Shown: positions 5,244 to 29,459, counted from the first letter of the stretch. The stretch is DNA of 29,459 nt from Candidatus Methanophagales archaeon (GCA_003601795.1 PIXU01000001.1:1-29459), one strand, 5' to 3'. Translations and numbers: made by a program. The notes: a model not told the origin generated them from the letters alone.

Positions 5244-5565
5244 CGCGCAACTATCGAGGGTTTGTATGACAATAAAGACCGAGAGTCATTCATGTAATAG
5301 TGAAAACGGGAAGTGCAGGAATGAAGAACATAAAATTGACATCATGGCAAATAAAGAGAAGATTTATGAAGGCTATACTTTAGCGATACTCTCCTATCTC
5401 GCATAGTATAGAATTATCTCTTATTCATATTTTGCTTGTCGTTTATTATACAATAAGACAATCTAATAGACAAAAATAGAAAAATTTAAATACTTGCAAG
5501 TAGAAAAGAATATTTATGTATATAAAAACGCATGATAGTATAGAAGAAATTAGGAGGTGATTAGT

Positions 5566-6597
5566 ATGAAAAAGAGAACCGCAATTATAGGGGGAATAAT
5601 GGCTGTAGGAATAATTGCAGTAGTGGTTTTTGGAATTGGATGCATAGAAGAAAAAGCTCCAGCAGAGATGACTACACTCAACATTGGCTATCAACCAAGC
5701 ACGCATCAAATCGCAGCGATGTTAGCATCCGAGAAGGGATGGTGGGAAGAGGATCTGGCGCAATTTGGTATAGAAAAAATTACAATGAAGGAATTCCCTT
5801 CAGGACCGCCAGAGATGCATGCAATGCTTGCTGGAGACCTTGACGTAGCGTATGTAGGAGTTGCGCCACCTATTGCGGCGATATACGAAGGTTTAGATGC
5901 AAAGATAGTTGCAGGCGTCCAGACTCAGGGGTCCGCGATAGTTATCCGCCCAGAGCTCGCGGATGAATACGAGGGGCCTCTTTCTTTAAAGGGCAAGTCG
6001 ATAGCCACCTTTCCAGCAGGGTCGATTCAGCATACAATCCTTTCGAAATGGCTTTTAGATAACGGAATAGACCCGACTGAGGACGTAGATATAAAAGCAA
6101 TGGGACCGAGCGATGCTGCTACTGCTATTGGAGCTAAAACCGTGGATGCTGTCTTTCTCCCCAGTCCGACACCTACAATAATCGTAGAGGAAGGGAATGG
6201 AGTAATTGTTGAATGGTCGGGTTCAATGTGGCCAGACCATGCATGCTGCTGCTTGGCTGCGAGTGGAAAAATGATTAGGGAACACCCAGAGATGCTTAAA
6301 CAGATAATAAAAACGCATATACGTGCCACAGAGTACGAGATCGAGCATCCCGAAGAAGCGGCAGAGATTTATGCAAAGTGGGAAAATGCAAATGTATCAA
6401 CGATAAAGCACTCAATAGACGCAACGGATATGCACTGGATTCACGATCCACATCTTGAGGTAGAATCGGGTATCGAATACGCGCAAGTCATCTACAACCT
6501 AAACAAAGAGAGATATGAGGGAAAGGGTATTGAAATGCTTGAGGAAAAAGACATCTTTGATACCAGCTTTTATGACGAGGTAACGGGGGAAAAATGA
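5566..6597 (+). CDS. ABC transporter substrate-binding lipoprotein 1, SsuA/TauA/NMT1-like
   Basis: SD GGAGGTGA precedes the ATG at 5566. Signal peptide ends in a lipobox-like GIGC. Motifs IGYQPSTHQ, EFPSGPPEMHAMLAGDLDVAYVG, GKSIATFPAGSIQH. Confidence 0.9.
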   Translation: MKKRTAIIGGIMAVGIIAVVVFGIGCIEEKAPAEMTTLNIGYQPSTHQIAAMLASEKGWWEEDLAQFGIEKITMKEFPSGPPEMHAMLAGDLDVAYVGVAPPIAAIYEGLDAKIVAGVQTQGSAIVIRPELADEYEGPLSLKGKSIATFPAGSIQHTILSKWLLDNGIDPTEDVDIKAMGPSDAATAIGAKTVDAVFLPSPTPTIIVEEGNGVIVEWSGSMWPDHACCCLAASGKMIREHPEMLKQIIKTHIRATEYEIEHPEEAAEIYAKWENANVSTIKHSIDATDMHWIHDPHLEVESGIEYAQVIYNLNKERYEGKGIEMLEEKDIFDTSFYDEVTGEK

Positions 6598-7367
6598 GGC
6601 TGCCAGCGAAAGAAAAAGGGCTGTGGTCGGTTCCTCTAATCACAGTCCTTCTCCTCTGGGAGTTTACGGCGGGATACGTGATAAAAAATCCGTTAATGTT
6701 GCCACGCTTCTCCGCCGTTATTTTTTCCATTTATGCGCTTAGGAATGTTTTGATTGCTGATATGCTCATCAGCCTTCTTCACTTTGGTATAGGGCTGGCA
6801 TTGGCATTTGCCGTAGCACTTCCTCTGGCAATTGGTATGGGGTGGTCCAGGAACATATTCAAAGCTATTGACCCAATCATTGAAATTCTGAGGCCAATAC
6901 CCCCTCTCGCATGGATACCCATTGCAATGATCTGGTTCCATCTGACGCACTATGCCGCGGGGTTTATCATATTCATCGGTGCATTTTTCCCAATCTTAAT
7001 TGACAGCTATACCGGATTTCGCAATGTGCCAAAGGTGTTGGTAGAGACGGGTAAAGTGTTAGGATGCATAGGTAATAAAAAGCAGATAAAATATGTTGCT
7101 TTTCCCTATGCGCTTCCTTCTATTGCTACCGGCACTCGCATAGGAATGGGAATAGGATGGATGTGCGTAGTTGCAGCGGAAATGTTCGGAGTTAGTGATA
7201 GTGGACTTGGATATCGCCTATTCCAGAAATTTTACTTTCTACATCAGATGGATTACGTGGTAGCGTACATGCTTGTTTTAGGGCTGGTAGCACTATGCTT
7301 AGACCGCTTATTCAGATATTTTGTAGAGGATAAACTATTAAAATGGAAGAAAGGGATAGTGAAATGA
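6594..7367 (+). CDS. ABC transporter permease, SsuC/TauC-like
   Basis: Multiple TM helices, LRPIPPLAWIP, FFPILI, EAA-loop region, IGMGIGWMCVVAAEM. ATGA overlap with the upstream gene. Confidence 0.92.
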   Translation: MRLPAKEKGLWSVPLITVLLLWEFTAGYVIKNPLMLPRFSAVIFSIYALRNVLIADMLISLLHFGIGLALAFAVALPLAIGMGWSRNIFKAIDPIIEILRPIPPLAWIPIAMIWFHLTHYAAGFIIFIGAFFPILIDSYTGFRNVPKVLVETGKVLGCIGNKKQIKYVAFPYALPSIATGTRIGMGIGWMCVVAAEMFGVSDSGLGYRLFQKFYFLHQMDYVVAYMLVLGLVALCLDRLFRYFVEDKLLKWKKGIVK

Positions 7368-8533
7368 GAAATAAGGATATTACCAGGTTAAAAATTGGCT
7401 TACTCTGCAAAGGGCTAAAAGTGAATCCAAATGCGAGATATTATCCTGAGATAGTACCTGATGGATATGCTGGAGGCGGGAAATCAAGAGCGGGGGTTGC
7501 GGGAAGTGGTAAAGATTTCATTTTAGATTCTGGAGAATCCTGTAATATAGGCGTTTTACAACCATTCCTGGAAGAATCACCTTTTGAATTCAAGATAATA
7601 GATAGCGAGGGGTGGATACTAAAAGAGGGTAAAAAAGCTATTAGAGCTACGCTAAGGGAGCCGAAATGGCATTCTACCCACTTATTCAACGAGATACAAT
7701 TGCATGGAAAAGATTCTCTTGCAACTGCGTTATCGAATTTCTGTATTTATAAGCAACAAGGAGAAGACTGCAAGTTTTGCATAATTGACGTTGGTGGAGA
7801 GATAGTGATTCATGAACCGGAAGATATTGCAAGAGCAATACAGGAAATAGAAAAGACTTCAGAACTCAGGGCATGCTATAATATTGAAGATAAATACAAT
7901 CCAAACCTCACAGAGCAAGAGCTCGAAAAGAGGAAAAAATATGTGGAACCGAAGGATGTAAACATAAATTCGGGGACGCTGAAAGACGCAGTAAGAGATT
8001 ATAAAAAGACAATTTCTGCTATAAAAGCAGTTAGTGAACTCCCGATTGGTATACAAATTTGTCCAGTCGAACCCGATGAAATGGAAACTCTTTATTCTGC
8101 GGGTACTACGGAAATCAGCTTTAATTTAGAGGTTTATGATGAGCGTGCAAGAAAAGAAGTAATTCCGGGGAAAAATAGGGATAATTCGGCAGCGGATTAT
8201 TTAAAGGCTATGAGCGAAGCGGTAGGGATATTTGGAGATAATCAAGTGGAATCGTGGATATTGATAGGACTTGAACCAAAGGAGAAGACCATTGAAGGAA
8301 TCAAAGCGATAGCAGAAGCTGGTGCAATACCATTGCCAAAACCTTTCAGACCTTTGTATGGGGCAGATTATGAACGAAAGAGACCTCCTACTTTGGAAGA
8401 CGCTATTGTAGTCTATGAAGCATGGCTGGATATGATTAGAGATTATGGATTGAACCCATTAAAAACGAAAGCAGGTTGTGGCAGGTGTAACGGTTGTTTC
8501 CCATTACATGAGTTGTTGAAATATGGCATTTAG
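7364..8533 (+). CDS. Radical SAM protein with a CX8CX2C motif, MSMEG_0568-like
   Basis: LHGKDSLATALSNFCIYKQQGEDCKFCII (CX8CX2C), N-terminal SRAGVAGSG...ESPF, C-terminal AGCGRCNGC. ATGA overlap with the permease stop gives the start at 7364. Confidence 0.8.
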   Translation: MRNKDITRLKIGLLCKGLKVNPNARYYPEIVPDGYAGGGKSRAGVAGSGKDFILDSGESCNIGVLQPFLEESPFEFKIIDSEGWILKEGKKAIRATLREPKWHSTHLFNEIQLHGKDSLATALSNFCIYKQQGEDCKFCIIDVGGEIVIHEPEDIARAIQEIEKTSELRACYNIEDKYNPNLTEQELEKRKKYVEPKDVNINSGTLKDAVRDYKKTISAIKAVSELPIGIQICPVEPDEMETLYSAGTTEISFNLEVYDERARKEVIPGKNRDNSAADYLKAMSEAVGIFGDNQVESWILIGLEPKEKTIEGIKAIAEAGAIPLPKPFRPLYGADYERKRPPTLEDAIVVYEAWLDMIRDYGLNPLKTKAGCGRCNGCFPLHELLKYGI

Positions 8534-8556
8534 AAAAGTGATTGGAAAGAGGTAAC

Positions 8557-9576
8557 ATGAAAAAGATAGCAGTTATAGCAGTTGAGATAATAATTGCAGC
8601 AATAGTAATTACTATTGGAACTCATTTTTATCTTCTGGCTGCGCCTACAACGCTTACCATAGGATATCAGCCAATCAACCACCACACAGCAGCGATACTG
8701 GCATCCGAAAAAGGATGGTGGGAGCAGGACCTTGCGAAATTTGGCATAGAAAAAGTCGAAATGAAAGAGTTCCCTACCGGACCTTCAGAGATGCACGCAA
8801 TGCTTGCTGGGGATATTGAGGTGGCTTATGTAGGTATGGCACCACCAATTTCAGCTATGTATGAGGGTTTAGATGCAAAGTTAATTGCAGGTGTGGAGAC
8901 CCAGGGAGACGCATTAGTTGTTCGTTCGGATCTTGCTGATAAATATGAAGGACCCCATTCTTTAAAAGGTATGACAATAGCAACCTACCCACCTGGTTCG
9001 ATTCCGCATACAATCCTCTCAAAGTGGCTTTTGGATAATGGGATAGATCCGGAAAAGGATGTAGATATAAAAGCAATGGGACCGAGCGATGCTGTTACAG
9101 CTATGGGAAGTAAAGCAGTAGATGCTGCTTTTATCTGCACTCCGTATCCTTCAATGATCGAAGAGGCAGGATATGGGATAATTGTGACGGTGGGAGGCGA
9201 GATGTGGCAGCATCATGCGTGCTGCTGTTTAGTTGCAAGTGGCGAAACAATTAGGAAACATCCTGAGGTGGTTAAGCAAATAATCAAAACGCATATTCGC
9301 GCCACTGAGTACATAAATATGTATCCTGACGACGCAGCAGAAATTTTTGGGAAGCGGTACAATATAAATGTAAAAACGATAATGCACTCACTAAACGCAA
9401 CTGGTATGCGCTGGATTCACAACCCGCATGCAGAGATAGAGGACGGGCTCGAATATGCGAGGGTCATTTACGAGTTGAATAGGGAGAGATATGAAGAAAA
9501 GGGAATTGAAGTACTCGAAGAAAAGGATATTTTTGATACCAGCTTCTACGATGAAATAAGAAGTAAAAAAGATTAA
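8557..9576 (+). CDS. ABC transporter substrate-binding protein 2, paralog of 5566..6597
   Basis: GAGG precedes the ATG at 8557. N-terminal TM anchor without a lipobox Cys. Collinear and highly similar to binding protein 1. Confidence 0.9.
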   Translation: MKKIAVIAVEIIIAAIVITIGTHFYLLAAPTTLTIGYQPINHHTAAILASEKGWWEQDLAKFGIEKVEMKEFPTGPSEMHAMLAGDIEVAYVGMAPPISAMYEGLDAKLIAGVETQGDALVVRSDLADKYEGPHSLKGMTIATYPPGSIPHTILSKWLLDNGIDPEKDVDIKAMGPSDAVTAMGSKAVDAAFICTPYPSMIEEAGYGIIVTVGGEMWQHHACCCLVASGETIRKHPEVVKQIIKTHIRATEYINMYPDDAAEIFGKRYNINVKTIMHSLNATGMRWIHNPHAEIEDGLEYARVIYELNRERYEEKGIEVLEEKDIFDTSFYDEIRSKKD

Positions 9577-9577
9577 A

Positions 9578-10351
9578 ATGAACCACAAACTTGAAATTCG
9601 GAATCTAACGAAGACGTTTAACACAGAAGACGGTGAAATGATGGCATTGGAAGACATTAGTATAGTAGTCAAGCCAGCTGAATTTTTGTGTATTATAGGG
9701 CCTTCGGGATGTGGGAAAACAACGCTGCTGAGAATGATAGCGGGTTTAGACCACCCGAGCAGTGGAGGGATTATTTTAGATGGGAAAGAGGTGAAAGGAC
9801 CTTCTCCGGATAGGGGGATGGTATTCCAGGAATTTTCGTTATTCCCATGGAGAACGGTTTTGAAGAACGTAGAATTCGGATTGGAAATAAAAGGAATGAA
9901 AGAAAAAGCGCGGAGAGAGATTGCAGAGAGATATATAGAGCTTGTAGGGCTAAGAGGCTTTGAAAATTGTTATCCATACGAACTTTCTGGAGGTATGAAG
10001 CAACGGGTAGCGATTGCTCGCGCGCTTGCGACTGACCCTGCGATTTTATTGATGGATGAGCCTTTTGGATCGGTGGATGCACAAACGAGAAACATACTTC
10101 AGGAAGAGCTGCTGGAGATTTGGAAAAGGACAAAGAAAACTGTTCTGTTCGTAACGCACAGTGTTGACGAAGCGGTATATCTCGCTGATAGAGTTGCAGT
10201 GATGTCTGCGAGACCGGGTTGCCTTATTAAGTGCCTTGATATAGATATACCGCGACCGAGGAAGCGAACGAGTGTAGAAGCGAATGCGTTCAGAGAGCAG
10301 TTGCTCATGTTGCTCCGCTTAGAACGTTCAAAGGCGTGTATTTCGGTTTAA
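9578..10351 (+). CDS. ABC transporter ATPase, SsuB/TauB/NrtD-like
   Basis: Walker A GPSGCGKT, Q-loop VFQEFSLFPW, signature LSGGMKQR, Walker B LLMDEPF, H-loop FVTHSVDEA. Confidence 0.95.
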   Translation: MNHKLEIRNLTKTFNTEDGEMMALEDISIVVKPAEFLCIIGPSGCGKTTLLRMIAGLDHPSSGGIILDGKEVKGPSPDRGMVFQEFSLFPWRTVLKNVEFGLEIKGMKEKARREIAERYIELVGLRGFENCYPYELSGGMKQRVAIARALATDPAILLMDEPFGSVDAQTRNILQEELLEIWKRTKKTVLFVTHSVDEAVYLADRVAVMSARPGCLIKCLDIDIPRPRKRTSVEANAFREQLLMLLRLERSKACISV

Positions 10352-10403
10352 TCCAGCGACTCTTTACCACATTTTCTATCTCCTCCACTCGACTCAAAAC
10401 CTT

Positions 10404-13829: not shown

Positions 13830-14477
13830 GTTCTTTTAAGACACCCTATTTGTAATTGTACATTATACTATATGATAAGATAATCAACTACAATGTAAAT
13901 AGAATAAACAGAAATAAGGAAATGAGGTAGTATGGATGTAGTTTATCAGGCGATATTTAAATCTAAATACAGAGAGGAGAGAGGCGAAGAAGAACTGTCT
14001 CTTACCTGAATATTGCCAGATGGCAGTAGTTCCTGCTGTGATTTCTTTGCATCTTCCACGTCATCCTGCGAGAAAATGGTTCACAAACACTTTGATGTCA
14101 CTTGCTAAGGAGCGGCAAACCGTCATTGAGAACTCATATTCAGCTCTCAGATGTCCGCTCCATCCCTCTTTTAGTCCTCTCTTCATTATACCTGCATAAT
14201 TTTCCCTTTCGTTGGGCATTTTGATCACCTTATCGAAAATAACTATGCACTCATCCCTTTCTAACCTTATGCCCATAGGAAATCAAATGGGGGTGGAAAG
14301 AAAGAAAGCTATCTTATCTCCGGTGTATTTGCTAATATTTCATGGACTTAATTTATCGAAAGGCTGTCCAACAATTCAAAATCGGAAGAAAAAGAAAGGC
14401 AAATAGTACTTTAAATCCAAAAAGAAGCAAAATCTTTGGCATCAAAAGCAATTGCGGGACAGCCTTCGAGTTTTTCC

Positions 14478-22574: not shown

Positions 22575-22607
22575 GCTTCTTTATTTTTTCACGATTTTTA
22601 GTTAGGA

Positions 22608-22784
22608 ATGCATAAGATAGAAGTAAAGACGCTGGTAGAGTTGCTGAGAGGCGGTTTTTTGCCGACTTCTTATGTTCCGCCGAAGGATATAAGGGCATGC
22701 AGGACTGGTTCCTATGCCCTTCGATGGATACTCACAGAAGCAGCGCGAGTCTACGTGCAGTGGTGTCCAAATAGCAAGAGGTGA
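22608..22784 (+). mobile_element. Internally deleted IS110-family transposase remnant
   Basis: Translates HKIEVKTLVELLRGGFLPTSYVPPKDIR (end of the IS110 DEDD domain) fused in frame to GSYALRWILTEAAR (late C-terminal domain motif). Not in the ORF track. Confidence 0.7.
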
Positions 22785-22982
22785 TTAGGATTTATGAAGA
22801 ATTGATTTCGATTGGCAGAATCGAAAAGAAAAAGGGTGGTTACGAGCTCGTTGCAGGAGGAGACAAGAAACTTTATAGGCATAGGATACCTTGCAAAATG
22901 GTCCTATCCTGAACTCTTTACAGAGTTAGATTCGAAAGTGGTTCATCAAGAATACCTGACAAGATTCCTTTGGTAAAGCTTT

Positions 22983-23022
22983 TCTTCAAGCCCTTACAGG
23001 GTTTGCGGGGTCGTGTGGGCAC
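22983..23022. CRISPR. Solitary CRISPR-repeat-like sequence (not a confirmed array)
   Basis: TCTTCAAGCCCTTACAGGGTTTGCGGGGTCGTGTGGGCAC has a CCCT-TAC-AGGG hairpin and a near-GTTTCAAT end, like 37-nt type I-D/III repeats. No faithful second copy and no cas genes. Confidence 0.35.
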
Positions 23023-23274
23023 CCAGCGCTTCAAACACGCCTCTACCCGGATAATATTTGTAGGGGTCGTAACCAAGGATTGCAAGATGTGCAGTATCAC
23101 TTCCAGGCACTATCCCAGGTGATATTACATCCATCAGCCCATTTATTCCCGCTTTGCTTATTTCATCTAAGTAGGGCGTTTCCGCAACTTGTAAGGGCGT
23201 CTTTCCATCCAACGGCAACGAGGGACGATCTCCGAGACCATCGCATATCACCAGTATCACTTTATTTTTACCAT
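23017..23274 (-). pseudogene. apgM: 5' fragment of the archaeal BPG-independent phosphoglycerate mutase
   Basis: LVICDGLGDRP...GKTPLQVAETPYLD...PGSDTAHLAILGYDPY..YPGRGVFEALG, then abrupt loss of similarity at about 23017. The ATG at 23274 is out of frame by one missing A. Confidence 0.85.
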
Positions 23275-23699
23275 AGCCAGGTTTTTGTGCTCATTGTTGT
23301 TTATCTTATTAACTATAATAGTATCAAATGACACTTAGTGGTTATCCCTATCATCCCTATTCTCCTTCTTACTATTTAAATGTAAATGCATACTTTCAGG
23401 GTAGTATGTCCTGATAATCACCAGATATTCATCCACAAGGGAAGTAGTCAATCGCGTGAGCCGTGGCAGATGAATATTTACCGAATGAGCTCCCGGAGGT
23501 GGGGATAGCGATAGTACCAGAGATACACAATGACCTTCTGCTGGACCTTCCACGCATTTTGAAAGATGCGGGCAAGCATGGAGAAAGACCCTGAGCTTGG
23601 CGACACGATATTGCACAGAGCAGGGTATATTATCAGGGAAGCGGTGGACAAAGCACTGCGCTAATTTGTTAGGGATGATGACATGCTCGGTATCGTTCA

Positions 23700-24246
23700 G
23701 GAATCTCGAAGAGCTATGGTGGCTTTCCAAAGACCCTCATCCAAAAGCAAGTAATTGGAATGTCTTGCAGCCATACAGTAAGAGTATGAAACAATTATTC
23801 AAAAATGGATACAAAGCTAAACTTCGCCCCAGTGGACATCAGATATCTACTAAGTTTAATATAGAGCATAAAAGTGCAACCCTTCTAATTTGCTTCAAAT
23901 CGCAAACACCGAGAGTAATAGTCTGTTTTTGCGTCTCTGTCGTCAAACAGGCATAAAGCCACATCCCGCAAGATACCCTGCGGGTCTACCAGAATTCTTC
24001 ATCAAAATGCTAACTGACGAAGGCGATCTTGTAGTTGACCCGTTCGCCGGTTCTAACGTCACGGGTGAAGTTTGTGAGCGCCTTAAGCGCCGCTGGATAG
24101 CCTTTGGTATTGTTGAAGAGTACTTAGAAGGATCAAAGTTTCGTTTCAATAAATTTTGTGTGGGTAACAAGGTTGGGCAAAGTGACCTGGAAGGCTTTTT
24201 CTCGCAAGGAAAAAATTTGGGAAGGGGAAATGAGAAGAAAACTTGA
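23700..24246 (+). pseudogene. C-terminal half of an N4/N6 DNA methyltransferase (beta class, M.PvuII-like), frameshifted
   Basis: WWLSKDPHPKASN..VLQPYSKSMKQL.KNGYKAKLRPSGH, frameshift near 23880, then NLLQIANTESNS..HPARYP..LPEFFIKMLTDEGDLVVDPFAGS. The catalytic SPPF/DPPY half is not seen. Confidence 0.82.
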
Positions 24247-24321
24247 ACGCGACTATGCGGTGCCTAACATTTCCGCTTCAAATTTGGAAGCGGGAAGCGG
24301 AGGGACAAAAAGTGGAGGGGA

Positions 24322-24495
24322 TTACACCGCATGATCCAACTGAACATACAACTGCCGGTCCTTGAAATTCTTCAACGACATCGCACCCGAGGGGCAATAA
24401 GAAGCGCAACTTCCACAACCTATGCAGCCATGTCCGACCTTCGCAACCTTCTTTGTCCCGCTACTACCGTCGCCACTGTAAATAACCATAGGCAC
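24322..24495 (-). repeat. Diverged second copy of the 3' end of the hdrA-like gene (matches 28719..28895)
   Basis: Translates ...GTKKVAKVGHGCIGCGSCASYCPSGAMSLKNFKDRQLYVQLDHAV*. By hand count 117/138 nt are identical over the last 46 codons, with a 29-bp perfect core (24377..24405 = 28774..28802). Confidence 0.95.
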
Positions 24496-24774
24496 TCATT
24501 CACTTTCCACTCTTTTTATGAAATCCACAATCTCTTCACTCCTTGCTGAATTCAACGATACCGTAGCACCTCTTTTATAAAGGGTTAAATAGCGCTCATT
24601 AACCAAATCCTTTACGATTCCCTCAATTCTTTTACCGTTTCTTACCTTTTTACTGAACCAGTTAACTAAAGTATCCAGAGGGAAATAGTATCCGCCCCAT
24701 CTTCCCTTCTTTAGCAGAAATTCTAATATAGCAGCCTTAAGCTGTAAGTCGCTTAGCTTCTTATATCTATACAT
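24496..24774 (-). CDS. Small basic hypothetical protein, probable winged-helix fold
   Basis: Intact-looking 92-aa ORF. The pattern ILEFLLKKGRWGG...VKDLVNERYL...VSLN resembles small archaeal hypothetical proteins. Confidence 0.6.
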   Translation of the reverse strand: MYRYKKLSDLQLKAAILEFLLKKGRWGGYYFPLDTLVNWFSKKVRNGKRIEGIVKDLVNERYLTLYKRGATVSLNSARSEEIVDFIKRVESE

Positions 24775-24853
24775 CGTACATTTATAGAACTTTGAAGCAA
24801 AAAATATAAATACTCAGTATATCAATAAATAACTTAACTATGGGAGGAAGAGA

Positions 24854-25183
24854 ATGGCAAATGAAGTAAGATATAGCGATACTGGACAATCCTTATTAAT
24901 TAAAGCACTGGGTTACTCGCCTAAGCTAAGAATAATTGATATCTTTTTAACCAATCCCTTTTTTGATTTCAGCAAAGAAGAACTGGCAAGGGAACTGGGG
25001 ATGAGCAAACAAACGTTATACAAGAACTTTTATGACTTAGAAGAGCTTGGAATAGTTATGATTTCCAGGAAGATAGGACGAGCCACGCTATATAAAATAA
25101 ATAAGCATCATCCTTTAATAAAAAGTTTAAATGAAATGATAACAGAAATGTCGCTTCAAATTGGGATAAACTTGAAAGAATGA
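24854..25183 (+). CDS. Winged helix-turn-helix DNA-binding protein (ArsR/TrmB-like)
   Basis: SD GGAGG. LGYSPKLRIIDIFL...SKEELARELGMSKQTLYK...LEELGIV...RKIGRATLYKIN. Confidence 0.85.
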   Translation: MANEVRYSDTGQSLLIKALGYSPKLRIIDIFLTNPFFDFSKEELARELGMSKQTLYKNFYDLEELGIVMISRKIGRATLYKINKHHPLIKSLNEMITEMSLQIGINLKE

Positions 25184-25207
25184 ATGAGGTTTTTAAAGCG
25201 ACACTGA

Positions 25208-25313
25208 CCGCAAAAAAGCAACAGATTCGGAAATGCTGGAGAATGGAATCCTGCTCGGATATAAAGGAGAAGAACTTGTTGGTATAACTGTATTGGAGGC
25301 TTCTAAGAGGTGA
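25208..25313 (+). pseudogene. C-terminal fragment of a DUF2283-like protein
   Basis: KATDSEMLENGILLGYKGEELVGITVLEASKR*, with no N-terminus. Confidence 0.65.
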
Positions 25314-25379
25314 AACGATACAGAAGAAAAAAAGTTTTTATGGATTGTTGCAAAAATGAATCATTGAGGGATAAACGAA

Positions 25380-25538
25380 ATGGAGAGTATATTTACCGCA
25401 ATTTTTGATAAGGTTGATGATAGGCATATCGGGTATGTCGAAGAATTACCAGGTGCGAACACACAAGGCAAAACGCTTGACGAAGTCCGTGAGAATCTTT
25501 ATGAAGCTATCGAGTTGATGTACGTTCATCATATTTGA
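25380..25538 (+). pseudogene. hicB: HicB-family (UPF0150) antitoxin, 3' truncated
   Basis: MESIFTAIFDKVDDRHIGYVEELPGANTQGKTLDEVRENLYEAIELM, then unrelated sequence. No hicA seen. Confidence 0.8.
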
Positions 25539-25929
25539 GAGCCATCCTGACCTTGATGTTGTCGAAAGGCGATACAGCACTGGTGATGAAGAGATTGATC
25601 TAATCGTCAAGAATAACCTGTCCAAACCCTTTTGGCTAGGTCTTTCGTCACCTATGTTTTTTGTTGAGTGTAAGAACTGGCAAAAAGCTGTCGGTGCTAA
25701 AGAGCTTAGGGACTTTGAATTAAAAATACAAAATCATCGCCCATTAGTTCGGTTGGGTTTCTTTGTCGCTCCTGGCGGCTTCTCCCGCGAATGTATCACA
25801 GAACTTCACCGTACCAGTCGAGATGAGTACGCAATAGTCTTACTTGATATGAAGGCGGTAAAACAGTTTGTAGAGGGTAGACTCAGCGTGCCAGATTGGC
25901 TTGAAGAGAAAATATGTCAACCAGTATAA
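25522..25929 (+). pseudogene. C-terminal Mrr-like/PD-(D/E)xK restriction endonuclease domain, 5' truncated
   Basis: Frame open from 25522: ...DEEIDLIVKN...FFVECKNWQKAVGAKELRDF...GFFVAPGGFS. Confidence 0.75.
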
Positions 25930-25932
25930 AAG

Positions 25933-27209
25933 ATGTGTAACATGACCGTGATAAAATCACTCACAGAGCTAAAAGACCCAAAAATATCCGAAGTCGGCGG
26001 TAAAGGGTATTCATTAGCTGTGCTCATCAATAATGGTTTCAATGTTCCTCAAGGTTTTGTTATTACATCTGATGCCTTCTTCAAATTTATAAAGTATAAT
26101 AACATAATAGAAAGGATAGAAAAATTAGCATCTGAGATTGATGAGAATAACTTTGAGAAAAAGAGCAAAGAAATTAGAGGCTTAATACTCGACGGAAAAA
26201 TGCCCGAAGATATAGCCTCAGAGATAGAAGAACACCTGAATAAGTTAACTGCGCAATATGTTTCTATAAGGTCATCTGCTGTAAGCGAAGATAGTTTAAA
26301 GGCTTCTTTTGCAGGGCTGCACGATACTTTTTGAATATAAAATCAGAGCTTGAGTTGGTTTTAGAAAACGTAAAGAAATGCTGGGCTTCTCTTTTTAATG
26401 ATAGAGCAGTAGTTTATCGCATAAGAAAAAAAATACCTCATTTGGATGGTATGGCGGTTGTTGTTCAAGAGATGATACCTGCTGATATTTCAGGTGTTGC
26501 CTTCACTGTTCACCCGGCAAAAGCGAAAGCTTTATTAATCGAGGCATCTTACGGTATAGGTGATATGATCGTGAGCGGCAAAGTAGAACCTGATGACTAT
26601 GTAGTTGATAGGGAAACATTAGAAATCATGGAGAAGAAAATTGGAAACAAGAATAAGATGAGCGTTTGTCACGGCGGACAGGTTGAAATTATAGAGGTTG
26701 AAAAAGAGCTTGCAGGAAGACAAGTTATACTCAATGAAAAAGTAGAAGAAATCGCTAAAATATGTTTGGATATAGAGAAAGTCTTTAATTACCCACAAGA
26801 TATAGAATGGTGTATTTCTAATAACAAAATATGGATACTTCAATCGAGAGCGATAACGACACCAGTAGCTCAAACAAAAAGAACTCCGGAAGAAAAAATC
26901 ATTTTAGAAGGAATTCCTGCAAGTCCCGGTATAGCCAAAGGCAAATAAGCCCACGTGAAGTTCATAAAATGGAAAACGGAGATATTTTATATAGTTACTG
27001 TCATGACAAATCCAATGTATGTGGTTGCAATTCAAAAGGCAAAAGCAATTGTTACCGATGTCGGTGGGATGATTTGTCATGCTGCTATTATCGCTAGAGA
27101 ATTAGGGCTTCCCTGTGTTGTTGGAACAGGAAAAGCCACAAAAATATTGAAAGATAATATGGAGGGAATTGTTGATGGCACAAAAGGAATCGTTTACTTA
27201 TCGGATTGA
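25933..27209 (+). pseudogene. PEP-utilising dikinase-like enzyme (ATP-grasp domain plus phospho-His domain), broken by at least three frameshifts
   Basis: VGGKG..L..L...GFNVPQGF, IRSSAVSEDS..ASFAGLHDT|LN, VQEMI, SGVAFT, PQDIEW, LQSRAIT, GIPASPGIAKG, TDVGGMICHAAIIARELGLPCVVG. Breaks at about 26330, 26945 and 26990. Confidence 0.88.
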
Positions 27210-27643
27210 CGATAGAATACTGGCCATTTCATCCAGTATTTCTAGATTCATTAGTTGCACCAATAGTTTTTGATGAACTTTTAAGAATTTTTGATATATT
27301 GGAGGGCAAAGGCTATACATTAACAGATATAGCTGAGATCCTAAAAAGTCCCACGAAAGTGGCAAATTATCAGTATTTATGGCCAATCAAAACCATCAAG
27401 AATATCTCTTATGAAAGGAAGTATGAACTTGCAAAATATTTCGTTAAACTCCTCGTAATTTTAAGGAATGGTGAGCCTTTCTGTGAAAAGGGGAGAAACT
27501 TAGCATGGTCAAGGAAATTATTATCTCAAAATGTTTCTAAATATCAAAAATATTTCATAGATACCCATGAAAACAAAGAAATGGCTGATTTATTATCAAA
27601 ACTTGAAGGACTATTAGTTTCATACGCTGAGACGCTATATTAG
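27206..27643 (+). CDS. Hypothetical protein coupled to the PEP-utiliser gene, probably 3' truncated
   Basis: TTG start overlaps the upstream TGA. The ORF ends exactly where the radical SAM fragment begins. No family recognised. Confidence 0.5.
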   Translation: MTIEYWPFHPVFLDSLVAPIVFDELLRIFDILEGKGYTLTDIAEILKSPTKVANYQYLWPIKTIKNISYERKYELAKYFVKLLVILRNGEPFCEKGRNLAWSRKLLSQNVSKYQKYFIDTHENKEMADLLSKLEGLLVSYAETLY

Positions 27644-27767
27644 AAGAACTTTATGATGCCTTTCTACTCCTTGCTCACACATTTTGAAATGTGGCGGCTG
27701 CACTATGTGCGGTTATTCAAATCTAGCATCGTTCAAGAAAAATATTCCGATGAAAAAGAGGAATTAA
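27639..27767 (+). pseudogene. Radical SAM N-terminal fragment (TIGR01210/RaSEA-like CX8CX2C)
   Basis: Alternative frame reads IRRTL*CLSTPCSHILKCGGCTMCGYSNLASFKKNI, resembling the GC.W....GGCTMCGY cluster motif. Not in the ORF track. Confidence 0.65.
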
Positions 27768-28048
27768 AAAAGGAATTAGAAAACATATGTGGCACAATTT
27801 TAAAAAATGCTGAGATGGAATGGGTAAAGAATAGGGAACATTGGCTTGGTTACGGAGGAATGGGTCTACTTCTAGTTTTTGAGCATGGTACCCCCAATAA
27901 TAGCCTTCCCATACTCTGGAGGGATTCCATAAAGCCCAAAGAGTTCTTTGCTTTATTTCCGAGAGATAAGTCTCCTGAGCAGAATATAGAATGGGATGAT
28001 ATTGATGCGGTATTAATGAGATTCCAGGGGCGAGGAGGATATCTGTAA
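27743..28048 (+). pseudogene. C-terminal fragment of a PRTase-like (PRTase-CE type) protein
   Basis: LGYGGMGLLLVFEHGTPNNSLPILW...ALFPR motif. Confidence 0.65.
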
Positions 28049-28271
28049 TGTGTGATTCTCATTATGAGGTCTTCGGGACAGAACTCTCCCTCCCAACTGG
28101 CAATTCGCAAACTCCTGAAAAACCAACTCTACTTCACGAACTACTCCGTATCACAACCACCCTCTTATACCCACCTCTCTCCTTCGCCAACGCTCAAGCG
28201 TATGAGAATCTCCGATTAAAACCTCTTCCCAGTTCCCAGAGGCCAGTGAATGAGGAAGAAATCACGTGCTG

Positions 28272-28550
28272 CTAAACTACCTCACCCTCTCCTCTGATAC
28301 CGTCAAAAGTGACCTTATAATTGTCCGAGATATCCCTTCCGACAATTGCTTTTAGGCTAAACAAATAACCGGCGGCTCTGCATGGTCCAACCTTTCTGAA
28401 AAAGAATTTACTTCCCGGATACTCTCCAACTCCAGCGAGGTCTTCTTTCTCCACTTCTATCGCTATTATCTTCTCCAGGTAAAGCCGCTCCCATTCTTCT
28501 TTTTTCCTTTGATATACTTCTTCCCCCCTCTTAACAAGCTCTGATTCCAT
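28272..28550 (-). pseudogene. Chimeric ORF: DUF5678-like protein (internally deleted) fused to the C-terminus of a retropepsin-like aspartic protease
   Basis: KRGEEVY...KIIAIEVE...YPGSKFFFRKVG (DUF5678-like) then AIVGRDI..NYKVTFDG (protease C-terminal strands). The catalytic DTG is absent. Confidence 0.5.
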
Positions 28551-28718
28551 CTTATCTAATCTCCCTCTTTCTTTCTATTTAAGATTCTTTTTACTGGTAT
28601 TTAAATCCAAAAGCTCAGCCATCTCAGAATGATAAAGAGAAAAAAATAGAAGGGGAAGCAAAACATTCCATCAACTGCTTTGCTTCGGTAGTTTGATTTG
28701 ATATTATGCCCCTTACCT

Positions 28719-29459
28719 CTACACCGCAAAATCCAACTGAGCGTACACCTGCCTATCCTTAAAGTACTTCAATGACATCGCACCCGAGGGGCAATAAGAA
28801 GCACAGCTTCCGCACCCTATACAGCCATCACCGACCTTCGCAACTTTCTTCGTCCCGCCTATCACCGTCGCCACACCGAAAGTAACCACAGGCACCGGCT
28901 CTTCCGTCAGCTCTATCGCCTCAACCGGACACATATCCACGCACACGCCGCACCCTGAACATATCAGCTCATCAACCACTGAAGTCACTGCAGGTGTTTC
29001 GAGGAAATCTTTCGCCAGCAGCACGCATGCCCTCGCTGCCGCTGCACTGCTCATCGCGAGGCACTCGTCTATCAGTGCAGGATAAACCGCAGAACCACAG
29101 ATGAACACTCCCTCGTTCACCGTGTCAACAGGTGTCAGTACCATCTTCGGTCGCTCTTGCTCCTCCATAAAGAATCCGTTTTTCAAGGGAATCATGAACA
29201 TCTTGCTCAGTCTCTCGTTCTCCTCCGCAGGCATTGTCGGTGTGCTGAGCACCACCAAATCCGGCTTTATCTGTATCTCATCATTGAATATCACGTCATA
29301 GACCGAAACAATCCCACCTTCGTATTTCGGTGGCTTCTCCTTATCGTATCTGAGGAATATCACTCCTTTCTCACGTGCTTCTTTATACAGCACTTCCCAC
29401 TTTCCGTACGTTTTAATGTCCTGATATAGCACGAATACATTCGCATCAGGGTTCTTCTC
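28719..29459 (-). CDS. hdrA: Heterodisulfide reductase subunit A-like flavoprotein, C-terminal part; the gene starts beyond the window
   Basis: YQDIKTYG..E.LY.EAREKGVIFLRY, DLVVLS, PVDT..EGVFICG, SAAAARA, and two CxxCxxCxxxCP ferredoxin motifs. Frame is open to the window end. Confidence 0.88.
   Translation of the reverse strand, partial: EKNPDANVFVLYQDIKTYGKWEVLYKEAREKGVIFLRYDKEKPPKYEGGIVSVYDVIFNDEIQIKPDLVVLSTPTMPAEENERLSKMFMIPLKNGFFMEEQERPKMVLTPVDTVNEGVFICGSAVYPALIDECLAMSSAAAARACVLLAKDFLETPAVTSVVDELICSGCGVCVDMCPVEAIELTEEPVPVVTFGVATVIGGTKKVAKVGDGCIGCGSCASYCPSGAMSLKYFKDRQVYAQLDFAV

Follow-up and report, generated by a model that had tools for sequence, protein, structure and literature searches.

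The window analysed here is a stretch of 29,459 nucleotides (nt) from a Candidatus Methanophagales archaeon (GCA_003601795.1, PIXU01000001.1:1-29459). It is the entire contig C1 of a metagenome-assembled genome (MAG) of 310 contigs, and its host is ANME-1 (Methanophagales), a methane-oxidising archaeon. The contig ends within the 3′ part of an hdrA gene on the minus strand (28719–29459; 246 codons and the stop), an open reading frame (ORF) that stays open to the contig end and is cut there. Energy conservation in methanogens and ANME archaea has HdrA as its electron-bifurcating core. The part of the gene present here codes for the C-terminal 2×[4Fe-4S] ferredoxin domain of this protein of ~900 amino acids (aa). 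Past the hdrA stop lies an island of 4,223 nt (24496–28718), which is made up of accessory and broken genes; its GC content is 0.378, whereas the contig outside it has 0.435. Beyond the island stands a second, displaced copy of the hdrA 3′ end in the same orientation, and the origin of this arrangement is the subject of this report.

For comparison, we used 66 genomes of the same family and 63 metagenome contigs, which together provide about 100 loci with an hdrA end. Judged by its sequence, the window ORF is HdrA: Fer4 domains (Pfam) and the HdrA/HdrA2 models (NCBIfam) match it, it has the 2×[4Fe-4S] C-terminus, and the full-length flavoprotein and its operon are seen in related contigs. In a 99%-identical strain (L115), hdrA is full length, with 872 aa up to the end of that contig, and is preceded by a frhB-like gene, hdrC and hdrB, giving an hdrC-hdrB-hdrA operon that also occurs on contig C141 of the MAG. 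The MAG is mixed, however: C141 is 99% identical to the genome of another species (G001), but the long contigs C1 and C50 are only ~77–86% identical to it. The second hdrA in the bin (86% nucleotide identity) is therefore co-binned, and we rejected it as a paralogue. The gene order of a further contig of the MAG (G000), C175, is similar to that of a G001 contig. The nearest compared genome to C1 is G078 (91–98% identity), which is assigned to another GTDB genus than the MAG bin.

Two hdrA 3′ ends bracket the island

Repeat search and gapped alignment delimit two copies of the hdrA 3′ end, both on the minus strand. Copy A (28719–28895) comprises the last 58 codons and the stop of the intact gene, and copy B (24322–24495) is a pseudogene relic of 57 codons and a stop. 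The copies are 86% identical in an ungapped core (24323–24461 against 28720–28858) and 84% identical over 174/177 nt when gaps are allowed, and their starts lie 4,397 nt apart. This agrees with the initial annotation, made from the sequence of the window, in which the last 58 or so codons recurred about 4.4 kb downstream in the same orientation at about 85% identity. On one side the homology stops exactly at the stop codons (TAA in copy B, TAG in copy A). On the other, copy B begins at 24495, one base past the stop codon (24496–24498) of a 92-aa ORF, as had also been described. Close to its 5′ edge, copy B has two indels, of 2 nt and of 1 nt, that break the frame and scramble the first ~11 codons, and several conserved residues are replaced in it (D to H, Y to N, A to V and F to H).

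Over the last 46 codons and the stop, the copies differ at 22 bases, which amount to 14 synonymous codon changes (the stop variant counted as one) and 6 non-synonymous ones, essentially the 15 synonymous changes in 21 differences counted initially. Random single-base changes would be synonymous in ~22% of cases, and the observed bias is accordingly strong (binomial p = 6 × 10⁻⁶). All four cysteines of the CxxCxxCxxxCP motif are retained in copy B, again as first reported. The synonymous bias indicates that the two ends diverged as working genes, in line with the earlier reading, and that the fragment is not a recent local duplicate. At the nucleotide level, copy B shares 80–88% identity with each of the orthologues, roughly what separates genera. 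The genome's other HdrA-like genes reach ~30–50% identity at the amino acid level.

The longest run of identity between the copies, 29 nt on the minus strand (28774–28802, corresponding to 24377–24405 in copy B), codes for ASYCPSGAMS. This is the most conserved coding stretch across orthologues and is no longer than expected for such a motif, so the run is explained by coding conservation and gives no evidence of an attachment (att) core. It is a possible crossover region, and many metagenome contigs end 79–125 nt before the hdrA stop, around this run. Copy B with both its flanks (window positions 25184–23555) recurs at 99.4% identity in an independent metagenome contig (L107) and is also found in a JGI contig (L033), which shows that the fragment is not an assembly artefact of the MAG.

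Displaced hdrA ends and integrases in related ANME-1

Displaced hdrA 3′ fragments of 67–395 nt were found in four other lineages, downstream of hdrA on the same strand and behind small inserts, which in three of the four are toxin-antitoxin (TA) pairs. In L060, hdrA is followed by a 1.1-kb insert with a UPF0175 and DUF3368/PIN pair and then by a 335-nt hdrA 3′ fragment that is 88% identical to the gene, with homology running past the stop into the terminator. L065, L061 and L063 have a 131-aa ORF and then a 395-nt fragment, which still has beside it the UbiA-like gene found immediately after the intact hdrA of another genome (G063:C191). G062 has a PIN fragment with HEPN and MNT genes ahead of a 67-nt fragment, and in G068, G070 and AHKK01006987 a 74-nt copy (92% identity) lies ~130 nt past the stop. 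G063 contributes two further variants: an 86-nt hdrA 3′ fragment that abuts a full-length superfamily 1 (SF1) helicase gene and has a flank resembling that of copy B (G063:C53), and an internally deleted hdrA (G063:C199). Adjoining the hdrA fragment of G062 (L026, that is G062:C75, 5151–8262) is a mirror image of it, in which the full aspS is preceded by a 1.4-kb insert encoding two ORFs and, ahead of that, by a 5′ aspS fragment of 133 aa. Duplications of gene ends are thus not specific to one att site.

In at least ten loci, the hdrA stop is followed directly, at a distance of 28–360 nt and on the same strand, by a gene or gene remnant of one family of tyrosine integrases. These proteins have Phage_integrase (PF00589) and SAM_4 domains and score 245 bits with the NCBIfam model XerA_Arch (cut-off 220) and 239 bits with the integron-integrase model (cut-off 265). 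Two loci have a full-length integrase: L073, at 221 nt past the stop, and L082, at 357 nt past it, where an OLD-family nuclease and further cargo come next. Remnants are present in L071, L080, L081, L084, L088, L090, L138, L149 and G078:C398. The last of these (L039; 3–2123) carries behind the integrase remnant, on the same strand, a 241-aa ORF and a 462-aa DNA methylase, probably restriction-modification cargo. It is 97% identical to L082, and the hdrA end, flank and integrase look as if they had moved as a unit.

Of the 66 family genomes, about ten contain strong matches to the integrase (~135–160 bits, PF00589), sometimes two each and often at contig ends. The same integrase also follows dapA directly and on its strand in L043, L045 and L053 (G019, G023 and G011; two genera), where the contigs end, which suggests dapA as a second preferred target. 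Being patchy, multi-copy and found after dapA as well, the gene behaves as a mobile integrase with several targets. Taken together, the integrases and displaced fragments support the hdrA 3′ end as a recurrent insertion point in ANME-1. Of the hdrA 3′ segments and integrases that the initial annotation had proposed to look for elsewhere, related ANME-1 contigs provided displaced hdrA ends and hdrA-adjacent integrases, and viral contigs neither.

Strain-level variation behind hdrA

Past the stop codon, the strains L054, L055, L056 and L104, whose hdrA genes are 96–99% identical, all continue into different DNA. The canonical flank of most orthologues, GTCCACTGGGCTTTTATTTT, is kept in L055 and L056; that of the intact hdrA of C1 is non-canonical, and those of L104 and L057 are likewise different. 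Copy B, by comparison, is followed in its flank (24200–24321, minus strand) by a degenerate TCCACT..TTTTT form of the canonical terminator motif and then by a hairpin-forming motif (24279–24300) that it shares with the flank of the G063:C53 fragment. Relative to its nearest strain (L056), the hdrA of C1 differs at 13 of 564 nt upstream (2.3%) and at 16 of 177 nt (9%) within the repeat region (Fisher p = 2 × 10⁻⁴), so that its last ~140 nt form a divergent patch. No such contrast between upstream and repeat region is present in a more distant control relative (L117). One of these two strains, C1 or L056, has therefore exchanged its 3′ end.

The flank motifs and the divergent patch are hints that the tail of the intact gene came with the insert. 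The initial proposal that the terminal ferredoxin domain was swapped is favoured to that extent. Either copy may be the native end: segment identities and by-eye inspection of polymorphisms give a mosaic pattern, and the 174 nt carry too little signal to choose between the two.

The island itself varies between strains, its content differing among L057, L107, L054–L056 and L104. L057 joins position 27536 directly to 23645 and is thus without 23646–27535, copy B included, and L101 and L102 (85% identity) carry an intact dikinase-like gene and a 449-aa gene with an Mrr domain ~5 kb behind hdrA and no hdrA fragment. These arrangements suggest that the island is composite and still changing. The 4.2-kb stretch between the copies that was described initially is low-GC accessory DNA; L057 and L101 give reason to doubt that it is one element, and broken genes continue beyond copy B down to 22575.

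Origin of the island

Because the integrase family recurs at the same spot, we regard an integrase-associated origin as the most likely one, and judge it somewhat probable that the window holds an insertion scar at a recurrent hdrA landing site, with the island as an old, eroded occupant. In this scenario the incoming DNA would have brought its own hdrA 3′ segment, and a single (Campbell-type) crossover inside the 3′ end of the resident hdrA would have left one complete hdrA, the insert and, on its far side, a displaced 3′ end that later decayed. The island would then have lost any integrase and been reshuffled by deletions and insertions, leaving accessory and broken genes. We infer that this island arrived by such an event, catalysed by an integrase, and in which direction the ends were swapped. 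The scenario is supported by the same-strand repeat that ends at the stop, the intact gene kept at the locus, the low GC content and the defence- and TA-type cargo. Judged as an integrative element, the DNA is flanked by target-derived direct repeats next to an intact target, with 84% identity between them and no exact core beyond the conserved motif, and integrase-bearing elements of relatives have repeatedly gone to this target; an integrase gene is not among the bracketed genes.

Several observations weigh against this origin. Six-frame searches with the hidden Markov models (HMMs) PF00589 and PF16795 found no integrase or remnant at E ≤ 1 in the island or elsewhere on the contig, as the initial annotation had noted; the same searches do match other contigs of the MAG. 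In a tblastn search, the integrase family found next to hdrA gave only noise on C1, and we dismissed a weak match of its HxxR motif (24472–24510, plus strand) as chance, given an E-value of ~2–5 and the wrong strand. The repeats share no identical att core outside the conserved coding motif. In L057 the segment 23646–27535, fragment included, behaves as one indel, and part of the island may be an old, ancestral neighbour of hdrA. An empty site, which the initial annotation had proposed to look for, was not found in any close relative: the downstream neighbours of L055 and L056 are not shared with the window, and the nearest genome, G078, is fragmented exactly at this locus. The 3′ end of L056 is 82.8% identical to copy B, and the 3′ ends of the nearest strains are not the closest to it, which leaves doubt that copy B is the native end.

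The relatives, too, provide some counter-evidence. G078:C398, a binned contig of 2.5 kb, may have been placed in the wrong bin. For the L082 and L073 elements, repeat search revealed no hdrA-derived repeat that could be attR in the 10-kb and 5-kb loci, so the case for hdrA as their attB is one of adjacency. Among viral contigs in IMG/VR we found no relative of the C-terminal 59 aa of HdrA or of the L082 integrase, and no viral or plasmid contig was found to carry an hdrA 3′ segment or this integrase. Of the initial claim that foreign DNA entered through hdrA, we can retain a site that is recurrent in ANME-1, with integrases and displaced ends; for this particular island, an integrase-bearing element is a candidate origin.

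The same structure could have formed without a site-specific integrase if foreign or sister-strain DNA had been inserted into hdrA by homologous recombination of the host, through a single crossover with a circularised fragment or through homology-facilitated illegitimate recombination anchored in hdrA, for which the high conservation of the gene among co-occurring ANME-1 lineages would make it suitable. Such a route would account for the disparate lengths of the fragments (67, 74, 86, 174, 335 and 395 nt), the small inserts (0.2–1.6 kb) without integrase, the homology in L060 that crosses the stop into the terminator, the aspS 5′-end duplication that flanks a 1.4-kb insert beside the hdrA fragment of G062, and a window free of integrases. 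We take it as a serious rival, though less likely than an integrase-associated origin, since one integrase family lies right after the hdrA stop in at least ten loci and since contig breaks and fragment overlaps are centred 32–86 nt before that stop. Homologous recombination alone also leaves unexplained why hdrA should be preferred over other conserved genes, an apparent preference that is based on the hdrA loci examined.

The alternative named in the initial annotation was an eroded tandem hdrA paralogue, that is, the remnant of a tandem or partial tandem duplication with the rest of the second copy deleted. Although long partial copies (335–395 nt, in L060 and L065), the internally deleted hdrA of G063:C199 and the second hdrA of the MAG on C141 could be cited for it, C141 is a co-binned contig of the G001 type (99% identity), and two full tandem copies of this hdrA were present in none of 102 related loci, where extra matches 4–6 kb off proved to be unrelated ferredoxin motifs or distant HdrA-like genes. 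A divergence of 16% with strong synonymous bias would moreover require two long-lived functional copies, and the fragment falls among orthologues, outside any paralogue clade. We therefore hold this origin to be improbable. That the structure is an assembly or binning artefact joining two co-occurring ANME-1 strains is hardly credible, since, for all that the MAG is mixed and hdrA a frequent contig break point, L107 (99.4%) and L033 reproduce the fragment with both flanks and L057 reproduces the junction of hdrA and island as far as 27536, so that only 26219–27535 rests on C1 alone.

Extending the integrase-associated origin to the whole group gives a broader model, which we offer tentatively and with some doubt. 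XerA/integron-integrase-like elements and integrase-less cassettes would attach at the last ~100–400 nt of hdrA and its terminator, bring replacement 3′ ends and thereby exchange the ferredoxin domain repeatedly from one lineage to another. A hypervariable island of TA and defence genes would accumulate behind the hdr operon, of which the window would be a decayed example.

Relation to known integration systems and implications

In bacteria, the element e14 and phage 21 integrate into icd of Escherichia coli, and the element brings a replacement icd 3′ end whose differences are mostly synonymous. The hdrA locus resembles this case in that a core-metabolism gene is targeted, an alternative 3′ end would have been supplied and the original pushed away, and the divergence is of the coding type. 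The difference is that e14, a prophage of bacteria, has its integrase and a defined core, whereas the window preserves only a scar, which could stem from a swap in either direction.

Archaeal elements are known to integrate into the 3′-distal part of protein-coding genes (2019, PMC6563490). These likewise insert at the 3′ end of a protein gene, leave the gene intact between direct repeats of its end, carry accessory and defence cargo and use a site that can be used again. Unlike the window, where the repeat is 174 nt long at 84% identity and neither an internal integrase nor an empty site is seen, they have short att sites (about 13–70 bp), an internal integrase and empty sites (PMC6563490). 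From the same host group, an ANME-1 genome has been reported to carry an additional, truncated mcrA with XerD-like tyrosine integrases on its flanks (ISME Commun 2026, PMC13109099), a case that also combines a fragment of a core energy-metabolism gene with XerC/D-like integrases. That case concerns another gene and was read as virus-mediated transfer, and no link to hdrA was reported (PMC13109099).

The SSV-type ‘suicidal’ integrases of archaea are among the subjects of Badel et al. 2020 (PMC7253208). They too are archaeal tyrosine integrases, and several of our relatives have only a C-terminal integrase piece beside the target gene. SSV-type elements, however, split their own int gene at attP, whereas the window has neither int(N) nor int(C) at either end. 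We rejected an SSV-like split integrase, as the full-length copies next to hdrA contain no hdrA-like segment and the window contains no integrase pieces.

Integrons, archaeal ones included, have been described by Ghaly et al. 2022 (bioRxiv 10.1101/2022.02.06.479319). The L082 locus is integron-like in its integrase score of 239 bits and in its gene units between repeats, and small TA cassettes such as those behind hdrA are typical integron cargo. The score is nevertheless below the integron-integrase cut-off of 265, XerA_Arch being passed instead, and integrons do not duplicate the end of a host gene. The repeated element of L082 (4033–4146, 6440–6494, 8316–8429 and 9964–9996) is palindromic, ~55–114 nt long and located between gene units, with inverted repeats GCGTATCTGG ... 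CAGATACGC around a CCCCTTCGGGG hairpin; it is also found in L069, L078 and L086. Folding z-scores of these repeats are unremarkable and attC-like folding is not significant, so the cassette-array-like layout could be an archaeal integron or a family of miniature inverted-repeat transposable elements (MITEs). The window has neither an integron-type integrase nor repeats of the L082 type. Copy B's flank was considered as a member of the L082 repeat family and rejected, the alignment being unconvincing for the window and suggestive only for the G063:C53 flank.

Overall, integration into the 3′ end of a protein gene is a known kind of event, and hdrA as its target appears to be undescribed: full-text literature searches found no description of it, consistent with what the initial annotation had stated. 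If elements preferentially land at the 3′ end of hdrA, the terminal ferredoxin domain could be shuffled between lineages; even strains with 97.7% identity upstream show mosaic 3′ ends. Such a preference would explain why ANME-1 assemblies frequently break right behind hdrA, and it would predict where to look for mobile elements and for accessory, TA and defence genes in a group that is uncultured and whose mobilome is poorly known. It would also supply a natural integrase/att pair from which genetic tools for ANME-1 might be developed. What the window preserves is a scar, and the interest lies less in it than in the recurrence of the hdrA hot spot.

Gene content of the island and its surroundings

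Next to copy B, the island begins with the 92-aa ORF (24496–24774, minus strand), which is 99% conserved in L107 and matches nothing in Pfam, NCBIfam or PADLOC. It is followed by a predicted 109-aa winged-helix or ArsR-like helix-turn-helix (HTH) regulator (24854–25183, plus strand), with weak matches to HTH_11 and other HTH families and to the Csa3/CARF-type HTH tails in PADLOC; G062 (L026) and L066 likewise have short stretches of its 3′ end located behind hdrA. Also on the plus strand are a 52-aa HicB/UPF0150-like antitoxin fragment (25380–25538; PF21748) and an Mrr_cat nuclease-domain fragment (25654–25929) that represents the C-terminal fifth of the 449-aa gene intact in L101. A dikinase resembling phosphoenolpyruvate (PEP) synthase is spread over three plus-strand ORFs (25933–27209), its PPDK_N domain being frameshifted at ~26331 and followed by a separate PEP-utilizers mobile domain. 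An intact 310-aa PPDK_N homologue behind hdrA in L101 and L102 is 82% and 70% identical (aa) to the two PPDK_N pieces.

The remainder of the island holds a 145-aa ORF and a defence-associated C-terminal fragment of PRTase-CE/PRTase_III-A type (27653–28048; together 27206–28048, plus strand), and SF1 helicase remnants on the minus strand (28164–28278), namely a Walker A piece and the C-terminal end of a gene that is full length in G063:C53. A second 92-aa ORF is also contained in the island. An exact-protein look-up of the island ORFs returned a single further contig, beginning within the island, and no record for this second 92-aa ORF.

Beyond copy B, broken genes and a repeat extend down to 22575 (22575–24321). 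They include fragments of an N6/N4 DNA methylase (23597–24246, plus strand) and an N-terminal 88-aa fragment of apgM, coding for a cofactor-independent phosphoglycerate mutase (22994–23260, minus strand). The same apgM and methylase debris is present in G078:C249 at 97–99% identity with two extra inserts, which indicates that this junk region is shared and still changing. Beside the apgM fragment lies a multi-copy repeat of 54 nt (22965–23018), of which ANME-1 genomes have many copies each at ~85–93% identity; it may be a MITE-like or other dispersed repeat.

Two further observations concern the rest of the contig. In a five-gene ABC-type operon (5403–10352), a 2.2-kb stretch (7368–9575) is missing from the otherwise collinear contigs C175 and G001:C92. 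A repeat of ~197 nt (14079–14275) has copies that are 81–91% identical on contigs C94, C236, C188 and C287 of the bin.

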